Shown here in pieces: positions 10,522 to 63,965 of a stretch of DNA of 64,000 nucleotides. The stretch's first letter is position 1, and each line of letters begins with the position of its first letter. Location of the stretch: NCBI GenBank assembly GCA_002427545.1, contig DIRM01000046.1, positions 12,383-76,382 on the forward strand, in the 5' to 3' direction. The notes beneath the pieces are model-generated. The model saw nothing but the letters and a program-made list of their open reading frames with translations, had not been told where the DNA came from and searched no databases. The DNA is from Mageeibacillus sp. UBA5436. GTDB taxonomy: Bacteria > Bacillota > Clostridia > Saccharofermentanales > DTU023. The translations under genes were made by a program, and so were the position numbers.

Positions 10522-10598
10522 GGCGGCGTAGCTCAGCTGGCCAGAGCACTCGGTTCATACCCGGACGGTCGTAAGTTCAAATCTTACCGCCGCTACCA
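10522..10598 (+). tRNA. tRNA-Met (anticodon CAT; a lysidine-modified tRNA-Ile2 cannot be excluded)
   Basis: Cloverleaf read by hand: acceptor ggcggcg/cgccgct, D-arm gctcagctggccagagc, anticodon loop ttCATac, T-arm gtaagttcaaatcttac, encoded CCA. No C1:A72 mismatch and no GGG/CCC anticodon stem, so it is not an initiator. Confidence 0.85.
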
Positions 10599-10602
10599 AA
10601 AT

Positions 10603-10677
10603 GGCCCGTTGGTCAAGAGGTTAAGACACCGCCCTTTCACGGCGGAATCAGGGGTTCGATTCCCCTACGGGTCACCA
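10603..10677 (+). tRNA. tRNA-Glu (anticodon TTC)
   Basis: ggcccgttggtcaagaggttaagacaccgccctTTCacggcgg...ggggttcgattcccctacgggtcacca. Closely resembles Bacillus tRNA-Glu. Encoded CCA. Confidence 0.92.
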
Positions 10678-45264: not shown

Positions 45265-45341
45265 TGGTGGGCGATGAGGGATTTGAACCCGCGACCTCTC
45301 GCATGTGACGCGAGCGCTCTAACCAGCTGAGCTAATCGCCC
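45265..45341 (-). tRNA. tRNA-Val (anticodon CAC)
   Basis: Reverse complement: gggcgattagctcagctggttagagcgctcgcgtCACatgcgagaggtcgcgggttcaaatccctcatcgcccacca. Val-like acceptor and D arm, A73, encoded CCA. One C-U mismatch in the T stem and G at position 32. Confidence 0.8.
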
Positions 45342-54170: not shown

Positions 54171-56270
54171 TTAAAGATTATTAATTTGTTCTTGAATTTC
54201 GAGAATTTTTAAATACAAGGTTTCATAATTTTGCAATAAATTAAGTAATTGCTGATATTCAGTATATATTTTATTATCTTTAGCCTCACTAAAATTAGCC
54301 TCATATTCCAATTTCTTTGCTTCACAAATTTCCATCTTATTTTCTATATCTGATATGGATTGTTCAGAGACTGCCTTAAAACGTCTAATTTGAATAGGAT
54401 TAATCGGAAATTGATTGATCGTCTTTAATCCGTTTTGTAATTTAATTTCTTGTTCGGTGAACAAAAATTCAAATTTTTGATCATAGCCATTTTCTTTATC
54501 TTTTACTAAATTTTGTTGCTTTTGAGAAGAACTTAAATTAGAAAAATCATTTTCCGACTGTGCCGTTTGAAGTTTAGAGTTTTTCTCTTTATCATTCATC
54601 CTGTTATTTTCTAATGGAGAGTTAACTTGATAGCCTGTTTTAATCAAATTAGCTTCTTTTTCAGCAAGACGAAAATTTTTATAATTAGGATAGGTTTTAA
54701 TTTCACGATCAATAAAACCAAGGATGGATTGTCCGATTTTTTCAATAAAATAACGATCATGGCTAACCGCTAAAATAGCTCCTGTATAGTTTAATAAAGC
54801 ATTTTCTAAAATTTCACTTGAGTTAATATCTAGATGATTGGTTGGTTCATCTAAAAATAAAATATCTGGTTTTTCTGTTAATAAATGACATAAATATAAA
54901 CGCCGTCTTTCACCACCTGAGAGCGTATTTAATCTTTTAAAAACATCGATATTGCGAAAACCATATTGTGCAAGTAAATTTCTAGCATAAGCATCTGTCA
55001 AATGTGGATCGACACATTGTAAACTTTGGATAACCGTTTGATTTTCATCTTGAAATTCAACTAATTGATGCAAAACACCATATTGTATATCTTTGGTTAA
55101 TTGTACGATGCCGCTGGCATTCTTTTCTTCACCTAATAAAGCATTAATTAAAGTTGTCTTACCACATCCATTTTGACCAGCAATAATAATTTTTTCTTTG
55201 CCTCTTAAAGAAAATGAAAATGGTTTAAATAAGGGCTGATCCTGTCCAGGAAAAGAAACACTCAAATCCTTAACGTTCAATATGATTTTATTTGGATCCC
55301 CTAAATCTATGCCTTTTAATATATTAAATTTTAAAGCGGTAGGATCTTTTTGCTTCTTACTTTTTAAATTCTTTAATCTATTTTCTAATTTTTCAGATTT
55401 CTTTTGGCTAGAATGATATGAGCTTATCTTTCGATGTGAAAGCATCGTTTGTGTAATCTCATTTTGTCTTTTAACTTGATTTTCTAATTTATGTATTTCT
55501 TTTTTTACAAAATTATCACGTTCTTTTTTTAAAGTTAAATAATTAGAAAAATTACCATTGTAAATATTTAATGTGCCATGTTCTAATTCAGCAGTTTTAT
55601 TAGCTATGCGATTGATAAAAGCACGATCATGAGAAATCACTAAAACAGTAGATTTTGTTGAAATCAAAAAATCTTCTAGCCACTCTGTAGCAATATAATC
55701 GAGATGATTTGTTGGCTCATCTAAGAGCATGACATCAGGCTCTTTCAAAAGTAGCCTGGCTAATGCAACACGCATTCTTTCTCCGCCTGATAAATCACTT
55801 AAATTTAGATGCGCAGTTTTTTCTGAAATACCTAAACCAGACAATATGGATTTTAATTTATGACGATAATGATAACCATCCAGACTTTCAAATTTAGCTG
55901 TTAATTCAGTATATTCTCTTAATAAATTTTGATAATTATCATTCCTTTTAGAAATTTGTTCTAATAAATCATTCATTTCAGCTTCTATTTTATAAATTTC
56001 AGCATCATAAAGCGCATCATTCTCACCAGGATCAATACTTAATTCTTGATTGAGATAACCAATGATGATATTTTTGGCGATTATAATTTCAGCATTTTCA
56101 GAATCAGGTTTTTCTAATCCAAGAATAATACGAAATAAAGTGGTTTTACCTGCACCGTTTTCACCAATAATGGCAATTTTATCGCCTGCATTGATTTGTA
56201 ATTCCACATCATTCAGTACTGCTTTTTCATAATAAGATTTATCAATATGTCTTAAACTTATTTGACTCAT
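54171..56270 (-). CDS. ABC-F family ATPase (two ABC domains, no TM segments) with a ~170-aa C-terminal extension
   Basis: Start taken as the ATG at 56270 (MSQISLRHIDKSY, the typical ABC-F N-terminus). Walker A GENGAGKTT and GQNGCGKTT. Signatures LSGGERMR and LSGGERRR. Walker B LLDEPTNHLD and FLDEPTNHLD. Confidence 0.88.
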   Translation of the reverse strand: MSQISLRHIDKSYYEKAVLNDVELQINAGDKIAIIGENGAGKTTLFRIILGLEKPDSENAEIIIAKNIIIGYLNQELSIDPGENDALYDAEIYKIEAEMNDLLEQISKRNDNYQNLLREYTELTAKFESLDGYHYRHKLKSILSGLGISEKTAHLNLSDLSGGERMRVALARLLLKEPDVMLLDEPTNHLDYIATEWLEDFLISTKSTVLVISHDRAFINRIANKTAELEHGTLNIYNGNFSNYLTLKKERDNFVKKEIHKLENQVKRQNEITQTMLSHRKISSYHSSQKKSEKLENRLKNLKSKKQKDPTALKFNILKGIDLGDPNKIILNVKDLSVSFPGQDQPLFKPFSFSLRGKEKIIIAGQNGCGKTTLINALLGEEKNASGIVQLTKDIQYGVLHQLVEFQDENQTVIQSLQCVDPHLTDAYARNLLAQYGFRNIDVFKRLNTLSGGERRRLYLCHLLTEKPDILFLDEPTNHLDINSSEILENALLNYTGAILAVSHDRYFIEKIGQSILGFIDREIKTYPNYKNFRLAEKEANLIKTGYQVNSPLENNRMNDKEKNSKLQTAQSENDFSNLSSSQKQQNLVKDKENGYDQKFEFLFTEQEIKLQNGLKTINQFPINPIQIRRFKAVSEQSISDIENKMEICEAKKLEYEANFSEAKDNKIYTEYQQLLNLLQNYETLYLKILEIQEQINNL

Positions 56271-56405
56271 AAGAATTATTATACACATTTTTTTGTTGTT
56301 TATGCCTTTTGCTCATTTTTATATTAAATTGACTGATGTTTGAATGCTTGTATGTTAAAATTAAAAATAAATGAAATTTTTAACAAAAAGAGAAAGTTAA
56401 GGAAA

Positions 56406-57065
56406 ATGAAGATTAAATACGCAATCTTTGATTTAGATGGCACATTATTAAATACAATTGAATCTTTAATAAAGACAGGCAATGCGATGCTGAATGATTT
56501 GGGATATGCCTCAAGAGAAAAATCCGAATACCAACAGTTTGTTGGTTACGGTGCTAAAAATTTGGTTAAAAGTTTATTGATTGCATCCGGGGACGAAAAG
56601 GCTCAACAATTAGAGGAAGCTTATCAAATATATATGAAGTATTTTGAGGATTATTGTGTCTATAATGTGGAACCATATCCTGGTATTTTAGAATTACTAA
56701 AAAACATGAAAGAAAAAAACATTCAATTAGCCGTATTAACGAATAAACCACATCAAGTAACAGGCAAAGTTTTGGACACTTCATTTGATAAAGATACTTT
56801 TGCCTTCATTCAAGGACAAAATTCAGATTTTCCTAGAAAGCCAGATCCGACAGCTGCTCTTCATATTGCAAAAATTCTTGGGGCAGAAAATACAAGAGAG
56901 GTTATTTTTATGGGAGATAGCGATGCTGATATGCAAACTGCCAAAAATGCCAATATGGTTTCTGTAGGGGCATCTTGGGGATTTCGAAATAAAGAAGAAT
57001 TAATTGCTAATGGCTGTGAAATTCTATTAGAAAAACCATTAGACTTAATTCCTTATCTTTCATAA
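56406..57065 (+). CDS. HAD-superfamily hydrolase (phosphoglycolate phosphatase / PpaX-like)
   Basis: Start taken as the ATG at 56406, after AAGGAAA. AIFDLDGTLLNT (motif I), LTNK (motif II), GDSDADMQ (motif IV). Confidence 0.8.
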   Translation: MKIKYAIFDLDGTLLNTIESLIKTGNAMLNDLGYASREKSEYQQFVGYGAKNLVKSLLIASGDEKAQQLEEAYQIYMKYFEDYCVYNVEPYPGILELLKNMKEKNIQLAVLTNKPHQVTGKVLDTSFDKDTFAFIQGQNSDFPRKPDPTAALHIAKILGAENTREVIFMGDSDADMQTAKNANMVSVGASWGFRNKEELIANGCEILLEKPLDLIPYLS

Positions 57066-57082: not shown

Positions 57083-58468
57083 ATGGCAAAGAAGAAAACG
57101 ATTTATATTTGTTCAGAATGTGGTTATGAATCAACTGGTTGGCTGGGAAAATGTCCCAATTGCCAATCTTGGAATAGCTTTCAAGAATTTCAAATGGATA
57201 AAACAACCAATGGCTCCAATAGATCTTGGCTTGATTCTAATCAAAAAATTGAGAAAAATGAAATTGTTAATTTAGAAGAAATTTCTGGACAAAGCCAAGA
57301 TCGTTTGCAGACAGGTATCAAAGAATTAGATCGCGTATTAGGTGGAGGTTTTGTTAAAGGTTCTTTAGTTTTAGTTGGCGGCGATCCAGGTATTGGTAAA
57401 TCAACTTTACTTTTACAAGTTTTAGGCAAGTTAAATTATCAAAACGAGACATTATATATCTCTGGTGAAGAATCTCCTGCCCAAATAAAAATGCGAGCAG
57501 ATCGTTTGGGCGAAAATACAAATACGGCCAGAATATTTACAGGAACTTCATTTACCGATATCGCTCAAGTTTTAAGCAAAGAAAAGCCTGATTTTGCCGT
57601 TATTGATTCGATACAAACTATTTATGATGAAGATTTGAGCTCAGCTCCTGGTACGGTTTCACAAATTCGTGAGACGACGGCAGGCTTATTGCGATTAGCA
57701 AAACGTCTAAACATTGCCATTGTTTTAGTTGGACATGTTACAAAAGAAGGGGGTATTGCAGGGCCTAGAATATTGGAACATATGGTAGATGCTGTTCTTT
57801 ATTTCGAAGGCGAAAGATCTGGCCAATATCGTATTTTACGCTCAGTTAAAAATCGGTTTGGAACAACTGATGAAATTGGTATATTTGAGATGACACAAAG
57901 TGGTCTTCAATCCGTAAAAAATCCGGGTGAAGCTTTACTTATAGGTAGACCTTTAAATGTACCTGGTACAACCATAACCGCATGTCTCGAAGGGACAAGA
58001 GTCATTCTTTTAGAAATTCAAGCTTTACTCAATTTAACGGATTTTAATCAACCGATTCGCAATACACAAGGCATTGATCGACTCAGATTGATTATGTTAT
58101 TAGCCATTTTGCAGAAATCTTGTCAAATAAAAACAGGCCTTTACGATGCTTATGTCAATGTGACTGGTGGAATGAAAATTAATGAAACGGCTGCAGATTT
58201 AGCTGTCGTCATGGCAATCGTATCTAGCATTCAAGAAAAACCAATTGATCCTAATCTAATTTTAATTGGTGAATTAGGACTCTCAGGCGAAATTCGCAAT
58301 GTTCCCAATATTGAAAAACGTGTTTTAGAAGCCATTAGTTTGGGTTGGAGAAAATTTATTGTTCCTGCTAGTTCGCAACAAAATCTTAAAATTCTTGATA
58401 TTCCTAAAGATTGCGAAATAATATATGCAGGACTTTTGCAAGAAGCTCTAGATATTATGTTTTTTTAG
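57083..58468 (+). CDS. radA: DNA repair protein RadA/Sms
   Basis: N-terminal zinc finger CSECGYESTGWLGKCPNC, Walker A GGDPGIGKSTL, KNRFG motif, and a C-terminal Lon-like domain. Confidence 0.95.
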   Translation: MAKKKTIYICSECGYESTGWLGKCPNCQSWNSFQEFQMDKTTNGSNRSWLDSNQKIEKNEIVNLEEISGQSQDRLQTGIKELDRVLGGGFVKGSLVLVGGDPGIGKSTLLLQVLGKLNYQNETLYISGEESPAQIKMRADRLGENTNTARIFTGTSFTDIAQVLSKEKPDFAVIDSIQTIYDEDLSSAPGTVSQIRETTAGLLRLAKRLNIAIVLVGHVTKEGGIAGPRILEHMVDAVLYFEGERSGQYRILRSVKNRFGTTDEIGIFEMTQSGLQSVKNPGEALLIGRPLNVPGTTITACLEGTRVILLEIQALLNLTDFNQPIRNTQGIDRLRLIMLLAILQKSCQIKTGLYDAYVNVTGGMKINETAADLAVVMAIVSSIQEKPIDPNLILIGELGLSGEIRNVPNIEKRVLEAISLGWRKFIVPASSQQNLKILDIPKDCEIIYAGLLQEALDIMFF

Positions 58469-58527
58469 TCAGGCTTTAAAATTTGATTATTTCATGTAAA
58501 TGAATAAAGAAAGAAAAGTTGATATTT

Positions 58528-59253
58528 ATGAATAAAACAATTGCCCTTATCACTGCCGCAGGCAATGGTCAAAGGATGAATCATACAGAAAATAAATTAT
58601 TCCTAAAGATAAAAGGGATGAGCATTATTCAACGTACGGTTCAAACTTTTTTGAAAATTAATTCAATTGAAAGGCTTTATCTTACAGTACAATCTCAAGA
58701 ATTAAATAAAATGCAAGATGAATTAAAGAATCTTGATGGTTCAAATAAATTAAGATTTGTGATTGGTGGTCAAACAAGACAAGAATCCATTTTAAATGGA
58801 TTAGAAAAAATTGCTCTGGATTTTAAAGAAGTAACAAAATCTGTAAAAAATGAAATGATTTGTTTGATTCATGATGGAGCTCGGCCTTTAATTGAGAAAT
58901 CAACCATTCAACAATGCATTGAGGAAATAAAAACAAACCATTGTGGTATTGGTGTTGCCGTTCCAATTAATGATACGATTCATATGATAGATCAAAATCA
59001 AAATATTATTAATACTCCAGATAGAGCCAATCTTATTGCCATTCAAACACCACAAGGGGCTTTGTTTGAACAATTATTATTCGCACATCGCTTGGCCAAA
59101 GCAAACAACTTTCAAGCAACAGATGATATTTCTGTATTACGATATGCAGAAATTCCAGCTAAAATCTATTTTGGACATATTAATAATATTAAAATAACTC
59201 TACCTCAAGACCGTCTCATAGCTGAGCGAATTCTTGATACAATGAATAAATAA
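58528..59253 (+). CDS. ispD: 2-C-methyl-D-erythritol 4-phosphate cytidylyltransferase
   Basis: Start taken as the ATG at 58528. ALITAAGNGQRM, GGQTRQESI, IHDGARPL and TDD motifs. Confidence 0.88.
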   Translation: MNKTIALITAAGNGQRMNHTENKLFLKIKGMSIIQRTVQTFLKINSIERLYLTVQSQELNKMQDELKNLDGSNKLRFVIGGQTRQESILNGLEKIALDFKEVTKSVKNEMICLIHDGARPLIEKSTIQQCIEEIKTNHCGIGVAVPINDTIHMIDQNQNIINTPDRANLIAIQTPQGALFEQLLFAHRLAKANNFQATDDISVLRYAEIPAKIYFGHINNIKITLPQDRLIAERILDTMNK

Positions 59254-59316
59254 TATGTTATAATATAGATTAACTAAAATGAAATATAGTAAATATTTAC
59301 TATATGGGAGGATAAT

Positions 59317-61176
59317 ATGGCAAAAGTTTCACGTTTTGCAACAACTAGAATATCAGCTAGTCTCATTGCTGATTATAGAAAGAATGATGATGTACAAGAT
59401 TCTTTTTATCTAGACGGCAGATTAGCCAAAAAACGAGAAGAAAACGGTGCTGATGTTACCAATATAGGTGAGGATCGAGGTTTCTTTTTTTCGATTTTTG
59501 CAAATAATTCTATAGATACTTCAGAAGGTTCAGCCACATCAACAGTTTTGAATAAAATGCTGGAAGCCGTTAAATTAGGAAATGATAAAATTGACGATGA
59601 AATTAATGATTTAGCGGATTGTGCAGTGGAAGTCGGTGGACGTGCTACCATTGCTAGAGAAGGTGTCAGACAATCTTATTTTGCGGGAATTATACTTAAA
59701 GAATCTGAAATTGCGGCTGTTACAAGAGGTGGAGCCTGTGCTTTTTTATATAGAAATAATGCACTTTTCCCTTTAACAACTTGTGATACTGATCTAGTTA
59801 ATGCAGATTATCACGGTAATCCAGTTGAACATATGACAGATTTTGCTGCAGGTATTGCAGGTACGATTCGTTATTCTAATATTGCACAAGTTCAGACTCA
59901 AGACATTTTAATTATTTGTAATAAAGAAGTTTTTGATGCAATAGGTCAAAGAGATTTAATTAAAATACTCTATGAAAATGATGATATTGGTGAAGCAGCC
60001 AGTGAAATTATTGACAATGCCAGAGAAAATAATTCAAATGATTCATTGCAAATTCTTTTAGCTCACATAGATGATGTCATTCCAGCTGATCGAACTGGAC
60101 GTTTAAATCTGGGTTTATTTCAGAATCAAAATGATCCTTTAACTCAAGAAACAACGAGATATCAACCAATCAGTTCAGCTAACCAAAATGACTATAATGA
60201 ACATATATCTAAAACTAAAGATACTGATCATGATGCTGATGCTGCCTTTAAACCACAATATCCTTCTACCAGCTTTGAGGATGAACCAAAAGAAGAAATT
60301 ATCAGCTCGAAAACAGAATCTGATTCCACAGATATGCCTTTCAAACAAGGCGAAAATGAAATCACGGAAAATGATAATCAAAGTTTTGAAAAAGCTTCAG
60401 ATGATTTTAAGCATATTGATTTGTCGGATTTAGAAGATAAGAAAATAACTTCTGCCGACAATACAGAATTTAATCAAGTCGAAGATCTTGACGACATACC
60501 AATCTTTGAGCCTGTTGTGCCAACATCAAAACAAAATAGCGAAGCATTTGATGCTGGACATCATTATGCAGATGAGGATTTTGGTGATGTTGTTGATGAG
60601 AGTTTTCATGATCAAACAGATTGGCATAATGATGATAACGATTATGATGCATCTTATGATGAAGATGATGAATATGACGAAGATGAAGATTATTACGAAG
60701 ATAATAAATCATCAAATGTAAAAAGAAATATTCTGTATGTTATCTTGATTTTAATTTGTTTAGTATGTATCTATGCATTAGTACGTATGTTCGTTTCTAA
60801 AGGAGATTCTAAGAAAGCAATTGAATCAGAAACAAATACAACAATTGCAGAAATAGTAAATACAACAGATGAATCTAATGTTCGTACACCAATTCAAAAT
60901 ACTACAGCAGATCCTAGTGGAAAGACGGATACCGAACCAACTGAGAGTTCAGATGGAGATAAAAATACAACAGATGGTTTACAAGTTGGTGATATTGGAA
61001 CTGTTAATATTGAAGTCTTGAATATTCGTTCTGTAGCGAGTGCAGAAGGGGACTTGATGGGTCAATTAGCACAAGGTTCACAAGTTGAAATTATAGATAC
61101 GGATACGGATGGTTGGTATGAAATACGAACAGATGATGGTATTCAAGGTTATGTTTCAGCTGAATATTTAGATTAA
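59317..61176 (+). CDS. Bitopic membrane protein: cytoplasmic PP2C-like domain lacking the metal-binding Asp residues, acidic linker, TM helix, extracellular SH3b domain
   Basis: Residues ~25-252 follow the PPM/PP2C motif order, but with FANN, TRGGA and CNKE at the DGxGG, GDSR and SDG positions. Acidic low-complexity region at residues 290-465. TM helix at residues 471-493 (nt 60727-60795). SH3b domain (VNIEVLNIRSVAS...GWYEIRTDDGIQGYVSAEYL) at the C-terminus. Confidence 0.6.
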   Translation: MAKVSRFATTRISASLIADYRKNDDVQDSFYLDGRLAKKREENGADVTNIGEDRGFFFSIFANNSIDTSEGSATSTVLNKMLEAVKLGNDKIDDEINDLADCAVEVGGRATIAREGVRQSYFAGIILKESEIAAVTRGGACAFLYRNNALFPLTTCDTDLVNADYHGNPVEHMTDFAAGIAGTIRYSNIAQVQTQDILIICNKEVFDAIGQRDLIKILYENDDIGEAASEIIDNARENNSNDSLQILLAHIDDVIPADRTGRLNLGLFQNQNDPLTQETTRYQPISSANQNDYNEHISKTKDTDHDADAAFKPQYPSTSFEDEPKEEIISSKTESDSTDMPFKQGENEITENDNQSFEKASDDFKHIDLSDLEDKKITSADNTEFNQVEDLDDIPIFEPVVPTSKQNSEAFDAGHHYADEDFGDVVDESFHDQTDWHNDDNDYDASYDEDDEYDEDEDYYEDNKSSNVKRNILYVILILICLVCIYALVRMFVSKGDSKKAIESETNTTIAEIVNTTDESNVRTPIQNTTADPSGKTDTEPTESSDGDKNTTDGLQVGDIGTVNIEVLNIRSVASAEGDLMGQLAQGSQVEIIDTDTDGWYEIRTDDGIQGYVSAEYLD

Positions 61177-61213
61177 TAGACCATTGATTAATCAAATTGA
61201 TAGATTATAATTT

Positions 61214-61255
61214 AAAGCTGAGTTCTGTTAATTTTTTAAAGACTCAGCTTTTTTA
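61214..61255 (+). terminator. Rho-independent terminator upstream of alaS
   Basis: aaagctgagt (61214-61223) / actcagcttt (61242-61251), followed by a T-run. Confidence 0.8.
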
Positions 61256-61310
61256 AAATGATTATGATATTCATAATTTATAATATTTTTTCTAATTAAG
61301 GAGAACCCGT

Positions 61311-63965
61311 ATGAAAGCAATGGGCTTAAATGAAATACGTACAAAATACTTGGAATTTTTTGAATCAAAACAGCATTTAATCATGCCTAGTTTTTCTCTA
61401 ATCCCTAAAAATGATCCTTCTATTTTATTAATTAATGCTGGAATGACACCCTTAAAGCCTTATTTTACAGGTGCTGAGACTCCGCCTGCTAAAAGAGCAA
61501 CCACTTGTCAAAAATGTGTCAGAACTCAAGATATAGAAAATGTTGGTTTAACAGCTAGACATGCTACTTTTTTTGAAATGCTAGGTAATTTTTCATTTGG
61601 TGATTATTTTAAAGAAGAAGCTATTACTTGGGCTTGGGAATTTTGTACAGAAGTTTTGAATATGCCTACTGAACGACTTTATGTCACTGTCTATTTAGAT
61701 GATGATGAAGCCTATGATATTTGGCATAAAAAAATTGGCTTACCCGAAGAAAAGATTTTCCGTTTTGGAAAAGAAGATAATTTTTGGGAGCATGGAACCG
61801 GCCCTTGTGGACCTTGCTCAGAGATATTTTATGATCGTGGTGAAAAATATGGCTGTGGCAAAGAAGATTGCACCGTTGGCTGTGAATGTGATCGCTATAT
61901 TGAATTTTGGAATTTAGTTTTTACACAATTTGAAAAAGATGAAGAAGGAAATTATCATCCTTTAAAACAAAAAAACATCGATACAGGCTGCGGTCTGGAA
62001 AGATTGGCTAGTATCATGCAAGATGTTGCTACTATATTTGAGGTAGATACCATTAAAGCTGTTATCGAAGCGGTTTGCCAAACGGCAAATGTGGAATATG
62101 GTAAAGATGCAGAAACGGATATTGCAATTCGAGTCATAACAGATCATATTCGAAGCACCGTATTTATGATTAGCGATGGTATAGAACCTTCAAATGAACG
62201 TCGTGGCTATGTTCTAAGACGATTGATTAGGCGTGCTTCACGCTATGGAAGAAAACTGGGTGTAGAGAATATCTTCTTGGCAGATTTAGCAAAAGTCGTC
62301 ATTGAACAATCAAAAGAGGCTTATCCAGAGTTAGCAGAACGTTCAAATTCGATTATTCGTGTTATTGTGCAAGAAGAAAAAGCTTTTGCGAATACAATCA
62401 AACAAGGCTCACAAATTCTAGCAGATTATCTGACAGAGAGTAAAAAAACAAAATCTAAAGAATTGAGCGGGGAACAAGTTTTTAAATTACATGATACATA
62501 TGGTTTTCCAGTAGATTTAACTCGTGAAATTGCAGCAGAACAAGATATAGCTATTGATTTAGATGGCTTTAATAAATTGATGCAAGAACAAAAAGCAAGA
62601 GCTAGGAAAGCAACCTTAGAGAATACAGATTCGGCTTGGGATGCCAATAGTCTGCCAGATACGATTGATCAAAGTCAGCCGACAAAATTCTTAGGATATG
62701 AACAATTAGAGGCAGAAAGTCAATTGCTTTATATTTTACAGAATACAGGTAATGGTTTAGAAATTGTTGAGTCAGCAGAAGCAGGAGAACCAGTTTTAAT
62801 TATAAGCAATCAAACACCTTTTTATGCTGAATCAGGTGGTCAAGTTGGAGATCAAGGTTGGATTAAAAATGATTATAGTAAAGTCGAAATCCATACTGTA
62901 AGCAAAAACGGTTCGAATATTTATTTACATCAAGGCAAAGTTGTAGAAGGGACCATTCATAGCGGCGATCAAATGCATTTCATAGTTGATCATGAGCTTC
63001 GGATGGCAACTCAACGCAATCACACAGCGACACATGTTTTACATCAAGCACTTTATCAAGTCTTAGGCGATCATGTTGAACAAGCAGGCTCTTTAGTTGA
63101 ACCAAATCGCTTACGCTTTGATTTTAAGCATTATCAACCAATCAATCGAAACGAGCTGGATCAAATTGAGAAGATTTGTAATGATGCTATCTTAGAAGAT
63201 TTACCAGTTACAACTCAAATTATGGATTTGGAAGAAGCAAAAGAATCTGGTGCTCGAGCTCTATTTGGCGAAAAGTATTCAGATCGTGTTCGTGTTGTTT
63301 CAATTGGTAATTTCAGTAAAGAATTATGTGGTGGTACACATTTAAAATATAGTACTCAAATTGGTAGTTTGAGAATTTTGTCAGAAACAGGTATTGCAGC
63401 AGGAGTGCGCCGAATTGAAGCAGTAACAGGAACAGCAGCTTATGATTATGCTGTTAAAGAAAATAATATTTTATTGAATTTATCAGATCAATTAAAAACA
63501 AATCCAGATAAAATTTTAGATCGGATTGAACAATTACAAGATAAGCAAAAAGAATTAGAAAAAGAAATGTCTGCTTTCAAATCAAAGCAAGCTGCTAATA
63601 TAGCTGATGAATTGCTGAAACAAGTCGAAACTATAGGTGAGATCAAAGTGACTTTTTCTAAATTACAAAATGCTGAATCAGATCAATTACGACAAACAGG
63701 CGATCAAATGCGTGATTATTTTCAAGATGAACCCTATATGATTGTCCTTGCTTCTGAAAATAAAAATAAAGTAATATGGCTGATTATGGCTAATAAAGAG
63801 GCCATAAATCATGGCGTACATGCTGGTAATTTAATTCGAGAAGCAGCTAAAATCACTGGCGGTGGTGGTGGTGGTCGTCCTGATATGGCACAAGCTGGCG
63901 GTAAAGATGCCCAAAAAATAGAACAAGCTTTTGCTTCAATCAGAGATAAAGTTAAAGAATTATAA
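61311..63965 (+). CDS. alaS: Alanyl-tRNA synthetase
   Basis: 884 aa. FFEMLGNFSFGDYFK, editing-domain HTATHVLH...CGGTH, and C-terminal DHHA1 with GGGGGGRPDMAQAGG. Confidence 0.97.
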   Translation: MKAMGLNEIRTKYLEFFESKQHLIMPSFSLIPKNDPSILLINAGMTPLKPYFTGAETPPAKRATTCQKCVRTQDIENVGLTARHATFFEMLGNFSFGDYFKEEAITWAWEFCTEVLNMPTERLYVTVYLDDDEAYDIWHKKIGLPEEKIFRFGKEDNFWEHGTGPCGPCSEIFYDRGEKYGCGKEDCTVGCECDRYIEFWNLVFTQFEKDEEGNYHPLKQKNIDTGCGLERLASIMQDVATIFEVDTIKAVIEAVCQTANVEYGKDAETDIAIRVITDHIRSTVFMISDGIEPSNERRGYVLRRLIRRASRYGRKLGVENIFLADLAKVVIEQSKEAYPELAERSNSIIRVIVQEEKAFANTIKQGSQILADYLTESKKTKSKELSGEQVFKLHDTYGFPVDLTREIAAEQDIAIDLDGFNKLMQEQKARARKATLENTDSAWDANSLPDTIDQSQPTKFLGYEQLEAESQLLYILQNTGNGLEIVESAEAGEPVLIISNQTPFYAESGGQVGDQGWIKNDYSKVEIHTVSKNGSNIYLHQGKVVEGTIHSGDQMHFIVDHELRMATQRNHTATHVLHQALYQVLGDHVEQAGSLVEPNRLRFDFKHYQPINRNELDQIEKICNDAILEDLPVTTQIMDLEEAKESGARALFGEKYSDRVRVVSIGNFSKELCGGTHLKYSTQIGSLRILSETGIAAGVRRIEAVTGTAAYDYAVKENNILLNLSDQLKTNPDKILDRIEQLQDKQKELEKEMSAFKSKQAANIADELLKQVETIGEIKVTFSKLQNAESDQLRQTGDQMRDYFQDEPYMIVLASENKNKVIWLIMANKEAINHGVHAGNLIREAAKITGGGGGGRPDMAQAGGKDAQKIEQAFASIRDKVKEL

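Follow-up and report, generated by a model that had tools for sequence, protein, structure and literature searches.

A complete open reading frame (ORF) at positions 59317–61176 of a 64,000-nucleotide (nt) stretch of contig DIRM01000046.1 from Mageeibacillus sp. UBA5436 (the whole stretch is hereafter called the window) encodes a 619-amino-acid (aa) protein that is very likely a membrane-tethered, wall-anchored pseudoenzyme with the fold of the PP2C (PPM) protein phosphatases. The N-terminal head domain has the PP2C fold and is homologous to the PP2C superfamily, and its catalytic activity is predicted to have been lost; a long acidic tether and a single transmembrane helix join it to a stalk and an SH3b domain that are predicted to lie outside the cell. 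As an overall explanation, a wall-anchored PP2C-fold pseudophosphatase acting as a docking module is judged reasonably probable, while the specific mechanism of tethered docking or sequestration described below is put forward more tentatively. The window protein belongs to a group of relatives referred to here as clade A, to which a second group, clade B, is the sister clade. The features of the protein are as follows:

59317–61176, + strand: complete ORF, 619 aa and stop, encoding pseudo-PP2C, acidic tether, transmembrane helix, stalk and SH3b
59338–60084, + strand: PP2C/PPM-fold domain, residues 8–256, predicted catalytically dead (AlphaFold2, Foldseek, hhalign)
60091–60726, + strand: acidic disordered cytoplasmic tether (predicted side), residues 259–470, ending in DYDASYDEDDEYDEDEDYYED
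60727–60795, + strand: single transmembrane helix, residues 471–493, N-terminus predicted inside (hydropathy, AlphaFold2)
60796–61014, + strand: Thr/Ser/Asp-rich stalk, predicted extracellular, residues 494–566
61015–61173, + strand: SH3_3/SH3b domain, putatively cell-wall-binding, residues 567–619 (Pfam PF08239)

The ORF and the elements that a first-pass annotation, made from the sequence alone, had listed within it were all present at or very near where they had been placed, including the PP2C-like N-terminal domain, the transmembrane helix and the C-terminal SH3b domain.

The PP2C fold of the N-terminal domain

Homology of the N-terminal domain to PP2C was established through structure prediction and through the sister clade, because direct sequence routes gave almost nothing. 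The AlphaFold2 (AF2) model of residues 1–258, computed from 18 family sequences, had a predicted local distance difference test (pLDDT) score of 82.7 and a predicted template modelling (pTM) score of 0.85, and all of its top 50 Foldseek matches in the Protein Data Bank (PDB) were PP2C/PPM structures, with E-values from 1.3e-8, a probability of 1.00 and template modelling (TM) scores of 0.5–0.6. These matches included S. agalactiae Stp1, PstP (ranks 2, 4 and 6), tPphA, PppA, SpoIIE (5mqh, rank 21) as well as plant and human PP2Cs. In the AF2 model of the full-length protein, the N-terminal domain was likewise confident, with a block pLDDT of mostly 80–95. By sequence, a Pfam scan of the window protein relaxed to E ≤ 10 listed no PP2C family, the same was true of 18 clade A domains, and searches of PDB sequences by family-profile hmmsearch and by phmmer returned no match for the N-terminal domain. 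The sole direct sequence match was to the NCBIfam model Stp1_PP2C, covering residues 189–249 with 16.9 bits against a cut-off of 230 (E 0.0034).

An exhaustive hidden Markov model (HMM) search of 1.84 billion representative proteins yielded 194 clusters, among which clade A was defined as about 95 clusters at 50% identity with E <1e-30 and clade B as a second group with E 1e-17 to 1e-8. The profiles of the two clades were aligned by hhalign with a probability of 99.7% (E 2.3e-26) over 252 columns. Members of clade B pass the gathering scores of Pfam PP2C (PF00481) and PP2C_2 (PF13672) and carry LysM, and one of them, P0140, matches the PDB sequences of PppA (E 1.4e-14) and PstP (E 2.5e-12) in alignments that bring the DGMGG, LLC(S/T)DGL and DN(I/V)TV motifs in line. 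When 119 clade A sequences were aligned directly with the single PstP sequence, the hhalign probability was weak (30%), and motifs 5 and 8 fell in the same register. The motif register is the same in all three alignments, namely P0140 with the PDB sequences, clade A with clade B, and clade A with PstP. Taken against the attributes of the PP2C superfamily, represented in the Pfam PP2C clan by PF00481, PF13672 and PF07228, the domain has the fold, a central beta-sandwich with flanking helices, and the profile homology, and it lacks both a curated-model match at gathering score and the complete set of four Asp residues and the motif-2 Gly.

Fate of the catalytic residues

The register of the catalytic positions was obtained by chaining the P0140–PDB and clade A–clade B alignments. 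The PstP residues used as reference are D25, D38-G39, D118, D191-G192 and D229-N230, a numbering that agrees with the P0140 alignment. In the window protein, motif 2 corresponds to FFFSIFANNS, motif 5 to AAVTRGGACAFLY, motif 8 to ILIICNKEV and motif 11 to SNDSLQ, and the metal-binding positions are occupied as follows:

59398–59400 (codon), + strand: motif-1 Asp kept as D28 (PstP D25)
59500–59505 (codons), + strand: motif-2 Asp-Gly replaced by A62-N63 (PstP D38-G39)
Residue 139: motif-5 third-metal Asp replaced by G139 (PstP D118)
59923–59928 (codons), + strand: motif-8 Asp-Gly replaced by K203-E204 (PstP D191-G192)
60040–60045 (codons), + strand: motif-11 Asp-Asn present as D242-S243 (PstP D229-N230), the Asp being kept

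Of the four canonical Asp residues that form the binuclear Mn/Mg centre (metals M1 and M2), the window protein keeps two (D28 and D242). The four motif placements (motifs 2, 5, 8 and 11) had been proposed in the first-pass annotation and were reproduced by the profile alignments. The accompanying claim that every alignable metal-binding Asp is substituted, the last motif apart, holds for the losses at motifs 2, 5 and 8 and for the retention of D242, but it overlooked D28 of motif 1.

Residue counts across the family were made on 109 non-redundant clade A domains, with related sequences counted as independent, and position 28 is Asp in 97 and Glu in five of these. The motif-2 position carries Ala, Ser, Gly or Thr and is never Asp (0/109), whereas that of motif 8 is Lys or Arg in 86 domains (79%) and is followed by Glu or Asp in 90. 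At motif 11, Val, Thr or Ala is followed by Pro or Ser, and an Asp is found only in the window protein and in its closest relative, P0001. Counted together, the canonical Asp residues are absent from 11 domains, and one is kept in 96 and two in 2. Position 63 is His in 40 of the 109 domains, and the phosphate-binding Arg position of motif 1, read from the alignment against PstP, is not conserved. 

Two or three metal ions are a requirement of every PPM enzyme known, and the PPM-fold proteins TAB1 and PHLPP2, in which ligands are missing, have no activity (PMC12002173). Since the Asp ligands are missing and PPM catalysis has this metal requirement, the head domain is predicted to be catalytically dead, and the earlier view that the protein is not an enzyme is strengthened by the universal absence of the motif-2 Asp and the prevalence of a basic residue at motif 8. 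A PPM fold combined with an evolutionarily conserved incomplete ligand set, as found in clade A, corresponds to the definition of the pseudophosphatase class (PMC12002173). An acidic residue at 28 and a basic residue at 203 occur together in 85 of the 109 domains, and Lys or Arg is found at 203 in one of the seven sequences without acidic 28. From this co-occurrence, it is suggested that the basic residue of motif 8 probably occupies the vacated metal site, where it would pair with D28 and E204. 

Two candidate metal sites were considered and rejected. Rescue of the site by D242 was discarded on the grounds that this position is Val, Thr or Ala in the family and that the neighbouring Asn is Pro or Ser, and a triad of H63, D28 and E204 was discarded with H63 present in just 40 of the 109 relatives.

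Conservation of the head

The 18 modelled sequences are 40–48% identical to the window protein (81% in one case), and their alignment has 50 invariant columns and a mean column identity of 68%. The tether is not alignable across the family, and no other part of the protein comes near the head in conservation. Conserved blocks include DxFYLDGR, NIDxEINxLAD, RQPYFAG, ExAAVTxGxGCAYLYR, LYPLT and DDCxIxCN(K/R)E, together with a Gln in the last strand, and the family-specific AG(T/A)xRYSNIA stands where clade B has a helical flap (KKAERLLKMGIIT). The invariant motifs are located in the former active-site cleft and the flap. Because the loss of the ligands is fixed clade-wide while the rest of the head is strongly conserved, it reflects selection, as in a pseudoenzyme, and not decay.

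Following the FYLDGR hairpin, clades A and B have in common an insertion of ~20 residues that has no counterpart in canonical PP2Cs such as PstP. In the window protein it is encoded at 59433–59481 (residues ~40–55), contains the conserved residues R40, E41, D46, T48, E52 and G55, and is modelled with a pLDDT of 52–59.

Tether, membrane topology and ectodomain

The linker between the head and the transmembrane helix comprises about 212–216 aa and is longer than the ~175 aa first estimated, whereas its strongly acidic character was borne out: the segment 259–474 contains 27.8% Asp and Glu and 7.9% Lys and Arg, with a net charge of −43. Residues 259–464 have an AF2 pLDDT below 50 and no confident structure. 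The sole hydropathy peak (2.93) lies at residues 475–493, within an AF2 helix spanning residues 466–493 (pLDDT ~87). Beyond the membrane, the ectodomain ahead of its last 60 residues is composed of 20% Thr and 11% Ser, and residues 498–588 have an AF2 pLDDT below 50. The C-terminal domain matches Pfam SH3_3 (PF08239) with 52.1 bits against a cut-off of 27 (E 7.4e-14) over 53 of 54 model positions, and the isolated C-terminus scores 56.2 bits. In the PDB, the sequence of this SH3b domain matches an autolytic lysozyme in its SH3 repeats (4krt, E 6e-7), as well as two SH3 domains of clostridial origin (2krs and 2kq8). In the full-length AF2 model, the SH3 region is modelled weakly because few SH3 sequences were present in the alignment. 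Binding of the SH3b domain to the cell wall is suggested by its family membership, by its wall-hydrolase homologues and by the occurrence of LysM at the same position in relatives.

The first 36 residues are of modest hydrophobicity (highest 12-residue Kyte-Doolittle mean 1.1), and no N-terminal signal peptide is evident from their hydropathy, no dedicated signal-peptide predictor having been run. Lys and Arg are richer on the N-terminal than on the C-terminal flank of the transmembrane helix in 90 of 112 family proteins (mean 3.1 versus 1.6). An N-in/C-out topology is predicted on the strength of this positive-inside bias, of the lack of an evident signal peptide and of the putatively wall-binding C-terminus. 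The resulting layout, consisting of an N-terminal PP2C domain, one transmembrane helix and an extracellular C-terminal domain, is that of a receptor-type, PstP-like PP2C.

Several further database matches of the window protein, to IcmG/DotF, PknB_PASTA, SecE and FliL in NCBIfam and to Prominin, New_glue and SARAF in Pfam, fall on transmembrane or low-complexity sequence far below the respective cut-offs and were rejected as compositional. The PknB_PASTA match, for example, covers residues 411–546 with an E-value of 0.0016, against a cut-off of 450 bits.

Family architecture and distribution

All full-length clade A proteins share a head of ~258 aa, an acidic tether of 54–804 aa, exactly one transmembrane helix and an ectodomain of 105–185 aa. 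The tether varies in length by ~15-fold, and its composition is usually 15–35% Asp and Glu and 2–16% Lys and Arg. Among 49 sampled clade A C-termini, Pfam recognized LysM in 26 and SH3_3 in four (the window protein, P0053, P0057 and P0064), and most of the remaining ones resemble a diverged LysM (GYRTWWDLF...LLPP). The SH3b domain is a minority swap for LysM and not a hallmark of the family. The combination of a PP2C-like domain, a transmembrane helix and SH3b, which the first-pass annotation had described, does not define the family, since LysM is the norm in the ectodomain and clade B includes apparently intact enzymes.

A number of clade A proteins, including P0084, P0100, P0107 and P0112, reach 1000–1223 aa, the excess length deriving solely from a tether of 560–804 aa. 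In these long forms, the flap has (L/Q)(W/C)SN instead of RYSN, and the ectodomain is of the diverged LysM-like type (GYRTWWDLF...LLPP) without a Pfam match.

Proteins of clade B (P0135–P0184) are ~420–480 aa in length and have a PP2C–transmembrane–LysM organization. Among 38 non-redundant members, the four canonical Asp residues are all kept in nine, three are kept in six, two in nine, one in nine and none in five, so that a single architecture covers heads ranging from active-looking to dead-looking. Some clade B proteins (e.g. P0141, with 'LLCNRELV') have independently gained the CN(K/R)E motif typical of clade A.

A scan of species-representative genomes identified 114 loci, of which the best 80 were found in metagenome-assembled genomes (MAGs) labelled Mageeibacillus, Saccharofermentans, Saccharofermentanales, Fastidiosipilaceae, Oscillospiraceae and Clostridiaceae, and in Amygdalobacter indicium. 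Identity to the window protein was 67–71% at nine loci and 81% at one. The family comprises at least 95 clusters at 50% identity, and at least 114 species-representative genomes, from Saccharofermentanales and related Clostridia, carry it. The identical protein sequence was found in NCBI, ENA and Logan assemblies, and a member of the same 90% cluster, NLZ71774.1, is named merely 'SH3 domain-containing protein [Clostridiaceae bacterium]'.

Gene neighbourhood

Gene neighbourhoods were compared for 82 clade A loci and three clade B loci. In clade A, radA and ispD are found upstream at 25–26 of the 82 loci, and alaS lies within the 6-kb flank downstream at 21, immediately next to the gene at 12. 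An alternative context has a cca-type nucleotidyltransferase gene upstream (24/82) and serC downstream (22/82), often accompanied by serA or DUF2298. The order radA–ispD–gene–alaS, which occupies 57083–63965 of the window, is retained in relatives down to ~42% identity. Both recurrent contexts are of the housekeeping type, which suggests that this is a core gene of the lineage rather than an accessory one. The three clade B loci have unrelated neighbours. A regular-expression scan of the 64-kb window found no Hanks-kinase motif (HRDxKxxN, DFG) and no PP2C DGxGG motif. Inference of a partner from operon structure was tried and rejected, as only housekeeping genes recur next to the gene.

The immediate surroundings of the gene contain the following features:

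58519–59253: ispD, upstream of the pseudo-PP2C gene
59306–59311, + strand: ribosome-binding site GGGAGG, 5 nt ahead of the ATG, read from the sequence
61184–61211: promoter-like site TTGATT-16-TATAAT, ahead of alaS
61214–61254, + strand: possible intrinsic terminator between the pseudo-PP2C gene and alaS (hairpin and short U run)
61311–63965: alaS, downstream of the pseudo-PP2C gene

In RNA folding, the hairpin at 61214–61251 has a stability of −14.7 kcal/mol (z-score −3.5), which was equalled in none of 200 shuffled sequences; a consensus terminator scanner made no call for the hairpin at 61214–61254, the loop being too long. The spacer between the pseudo-PP2C gene and alaS measures 135 nt and is too short for a T-box leader; Rfam identified no RNA family in this spacer, and no RNA element in the vicinity of the gene emerged from the Rfam and tRNA scans. 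Given its own ribosome-binding site, the terminator-like hairpin and the promoter-like site before alaS, the gene looks like a unit of its own and is seemingly monocistronic. Its G+C content (~32–34%) is ordinary for the window.

Four overlapping ORFs of 68–81 aa lie within the linker-coding region, at 60175–60381 (− strand), 60188–60433 (+ strand), 60470–60715 (− strand) and 60488–60721 (+ strand), and coincide with GAT/GAA low-complexity repeats at 60629–60702. As had been noted in the first-pass annotation, they are best explained as arising from the biased composition of this stretch.

Elsewhere in the window, the region upstream of radA (54171–57065) encodes a 705-aa protein on the − strand with two ABC-like Walker A motifs and a 241-aa protein whose N-terminus bears the DxDGT motif that typifies HAD phosphatases, both features being read from the translations; the two genes are syntenic in the closest relatives. 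Three tRNA genes are present, namely tRNA-Met(CAT) and tRNA-Glu(TTC) in tandem on the + strand (10522–10677) and tRNA-Val(CAC) on the − strand (45265–45341), and apart from these Rfam detected no RNA family in the window at gathering threshold.

Proposed function and alternative explanations

It is proposed that the protein descends from an active membrane-anchored PP2C-LysM phosphatase, and that the former active-site cleft, together with the adjacent remodelled flap AG(T/A)xRYSNIA, probably binds a protein partner. The analogy with TAB1-type pseudophosphatases and the membrane-PP2C ancestry suggest that this partner would most plausibly belong to envelope signalling, as a phospho-Ser/Thr protein or a Hanks-type kinase. 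The ectodomain would fix the protein at particular places of the wall and act as an anchor or address rather than as a ligand sensor, because a disordered tether of 200–800 aa cannot carry a conformational signal and because two unrelated wall-binding folds are interchangeable at this position. The head, in turn, would be neither an allosteric receptor nor an enzyme, and would work instead by docking or sequestering its partner at the end of the tether, so that the partner is concentrated or shielded close to the membrane. In a more specific form of this proposal, which must be regarded as rather unlikely, the dead head would capture the phospho-Thr substrates of a Hanks/PASTA kinase, or the kinase itself, on an acidic 'fishing line'. 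Were this the case, the partner would be shielded from the soluble Stp phosphatase and the local phosphorylation of the wall-synthesis and division machinery would be set in this way; the family would represent a bacterial counterpart of eukaryotic pseudophosphatase signalling, fixed at wall sites through SH3b or LysM, and clade B would preserve snapshots of the transition from enzyme to pseudoenzyme within one architecture.

Several observations weigh against this proposal. At the 82 clade A loci, genes for kinases, phosphatases, STAS or FHA proteins or sigma factors are not among the conserved neighbours, and none of the loci, with their radA–ispD, alaS, cca and serC neighbours, suggests a partner. 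Wall binding by the SH3b domain of this protein is assumed from family membership alone. The salt bridge between D28/E204 and K203 is a proposal from sequence co-occurrence, and it is likewise an assumption that no other acidic residues cluster in space. In addition, the near-invariance of D28, the conservation of E204 and the presence of D242 in the window protein leave some room for the binding of a single metal ion, as in TAB1 and PHLPP2, or for a non-canonical activity.

One rival reading is that the head is still an enzyme, either a PPM phosphatase or another hydrolase, with a non-canonical site such as a mononuclear D28/E204/D242 centre (joined by His63 in many relatives). The frequencies of Asp at 28, of an acidic residue at 204 and of His at 63 (97, 90 and 40 of 109), the ranking of the cleft among the best-conserved parts and the D242 of the window protein all speak for this view, but it is considered highly unlikely: none of the 109 relatives has the motif-2 Asp, the residue by which the two metals are bridged in PPMs, the cationic Lys or Arg present at motif 8 in 79% would repel a metal, neither D242 nor H63 nor the canonical phosphate-binding Arg position is conserved, and known PPMs need two to three metals, the single-metal TAB1 and PHLPP2 being inactive (PMC12002173). 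It is even harder to sustain that the resemblance to PP2C is spurious and the order of motifs a coincidence, an explanation that we hold to be exceedingly improbable. Pfam matches are confined to SH3_3 in the window protein and 17 close relatives, the profile search of PDB sequences was empty and the direct hhalign comparison with PstP reached 30%, as would be expected of a chance resemblance, but structure and sequence agree independently (50 of 50 Foldseek matches at a probability of 1.00, and 99.7% in hhalign), clade B is PP2C by both Pfam and PDB matches, and the register is identical in three alignments.

In Firmicutes, STAS proteins are the typical targets of PP2C domains, as exemplified by SpoIIE, RsbU and RsbP, and the topology of the window protein resembles that of single-pass anti-sigma factors. 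Both facts favour a membrane anti-sigma or partner-switching adaptor, as contemplated in the first-pass annotation, whose head would bind either a sigma factor or, in its phosphorylated form, a STAS-type anti-anti-sigma protein, and let it go once the wall-bound ectodomain senses envelope damage, in the manner of RsgI, RsbU or SpoIIE. This is now judged very unlikely, given that no sigma, STAS or anti-sigma kinase gene is conserved as a neighbour at the 82 loci, where ispD, the cca-type nucleotidyltransferase gene, serC, alaS and DUF2298 are the commonest neighbours, that Pfam and NCBIfam scans detected no anti-sigma domain of the RsgI or zf-HC2 type, that the gene looks monocistronic, with its own ribosome-binding site and a terminator-like hairpin, and that a disordered tether of 54–804 aa is ill suited to relay a signal. 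A mainly structural role in the envelope, as a membrane–wall tether or cation buffer with the head as a stable cap lacking specific partners, would agree with the interchangeable wall-binding modules, with a tether that is extremely variable in length yet always acidic, and with the housekeeping gene context. A passive cap would not stay so constant, however, as a head with 68% mean column identity, 50 invariant positions and invariant motifs in the former cleft and flap, and this role is therefore also viewed as unlikely.

Read as a wall-anchored pseudophosphatase, the family is a candidate missing component of Gram-positive envelope Ser/Thr signalling. Its head domain is invisible to Pfam and is annotated solely as 'SH3' or 'LysM domain protein', and the family could form the basis of a new Pfam/InterPro entry in the PP2C clan, which would improve annotation. 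The natural series from active to dead PP2C in one fixed architecture would be useful for studying the origins of pseudoenzymes, including the recurrent change of Asp to Lys or Arg. Among the carriers of the family are Amygdalobacter, a cultivable genus associated with humans, and MAGs that were assigned to Mageeibacillus.

Comparison with known systems

In eukaryotes, a regulatory role of PPM pseudoenzymes is established (TAB1, PHLPP), and the pseudo-PPM as a concept is already known from there. To our knowledge, PPM-fold pseudoenzymes are essentially undescribed in bacteria, and the literature searched contained no description of a bacterial PP2C pseudophosphatase or of PP2C–transmembrane–LysM/SH3b proteins. 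The family has no functional annotation, in agreement with the first impression that the architecture is not that of a characterised family.

In layout, the window protein resembles PstP of M. tuberculosis (1txo, 2cm1), which also has an N-terminal cytoplasmic PP2C domain, a juxtamembrane linker, one transmembrane helix and an extracellular domain. PstP is an active enzyme with the ligands D25, D38, G39, D118, D191 and D229 all present, whereas the window protein has A62 in place of D38, G139 in place of D118 and K203 in place of D191. Furthermore, the ectodomain of PstP is not SH3b or LysM, and the tether of the window protein is far longer and acidic. SpoIIE, RsbU and RsbP have the PP2C fold as well, and SpoIIE is also membrane-bound, but these are active proteins with intact Asp residues that are encoded beside, or act on, STAS and anti-sigma modules, none of which was seen for the window protein, and SpoIIE has 10 transmembrane helices N-terminal to its PP2C domain whereas the window protein has one after the head.

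The PASTA kinases (PrkC, PknB and StkP) combine a cytoplasmic signalling domain, one transmembrane helix and an extracellular peptidoglycan-binding module. The design logic of the window protein is analogous, but a kinase fold takes the place of the PP2C fold and PASTA that of SH3b or LysM, and there is no homology between the two. TAB1 and PHLPP2 share with the window protein the PP2C fold, an incomplete metal site and inactivity (PMC12002173), which for the window protein is predicted, and in all of them the dead state appears evolutionarily fixed and conserved. TAB1 acts as a binding or scaffold protein for kinases (PMC12002173). These eukaryotic proteins are not orthologous to the window protein, whose nearest structures and sequences are bacterial PP2Cs; they are soluble multidomain proteins in which one metal is still bound, whereas the window protein is single-pass and its family carries Lys or Arg in the site.

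A further comparison is with clade B, true homologues from other Clostridia that are uncharacterised and of which one, P0140, carries the JGI name 'PPM family protein phosphatase'; this clade has the same architecture and the same insertion after NFYxxGR. Clade B differs in its helical flap (KKAERLLKMGIIT), its short tethers, its exclusively LysM ectodomains and an Asp set that ranges from intact to none, whereas in clade A the site is uniformly lost, the flap is remodelled to AGTxRYSNIA and the tethers are long and acidic.

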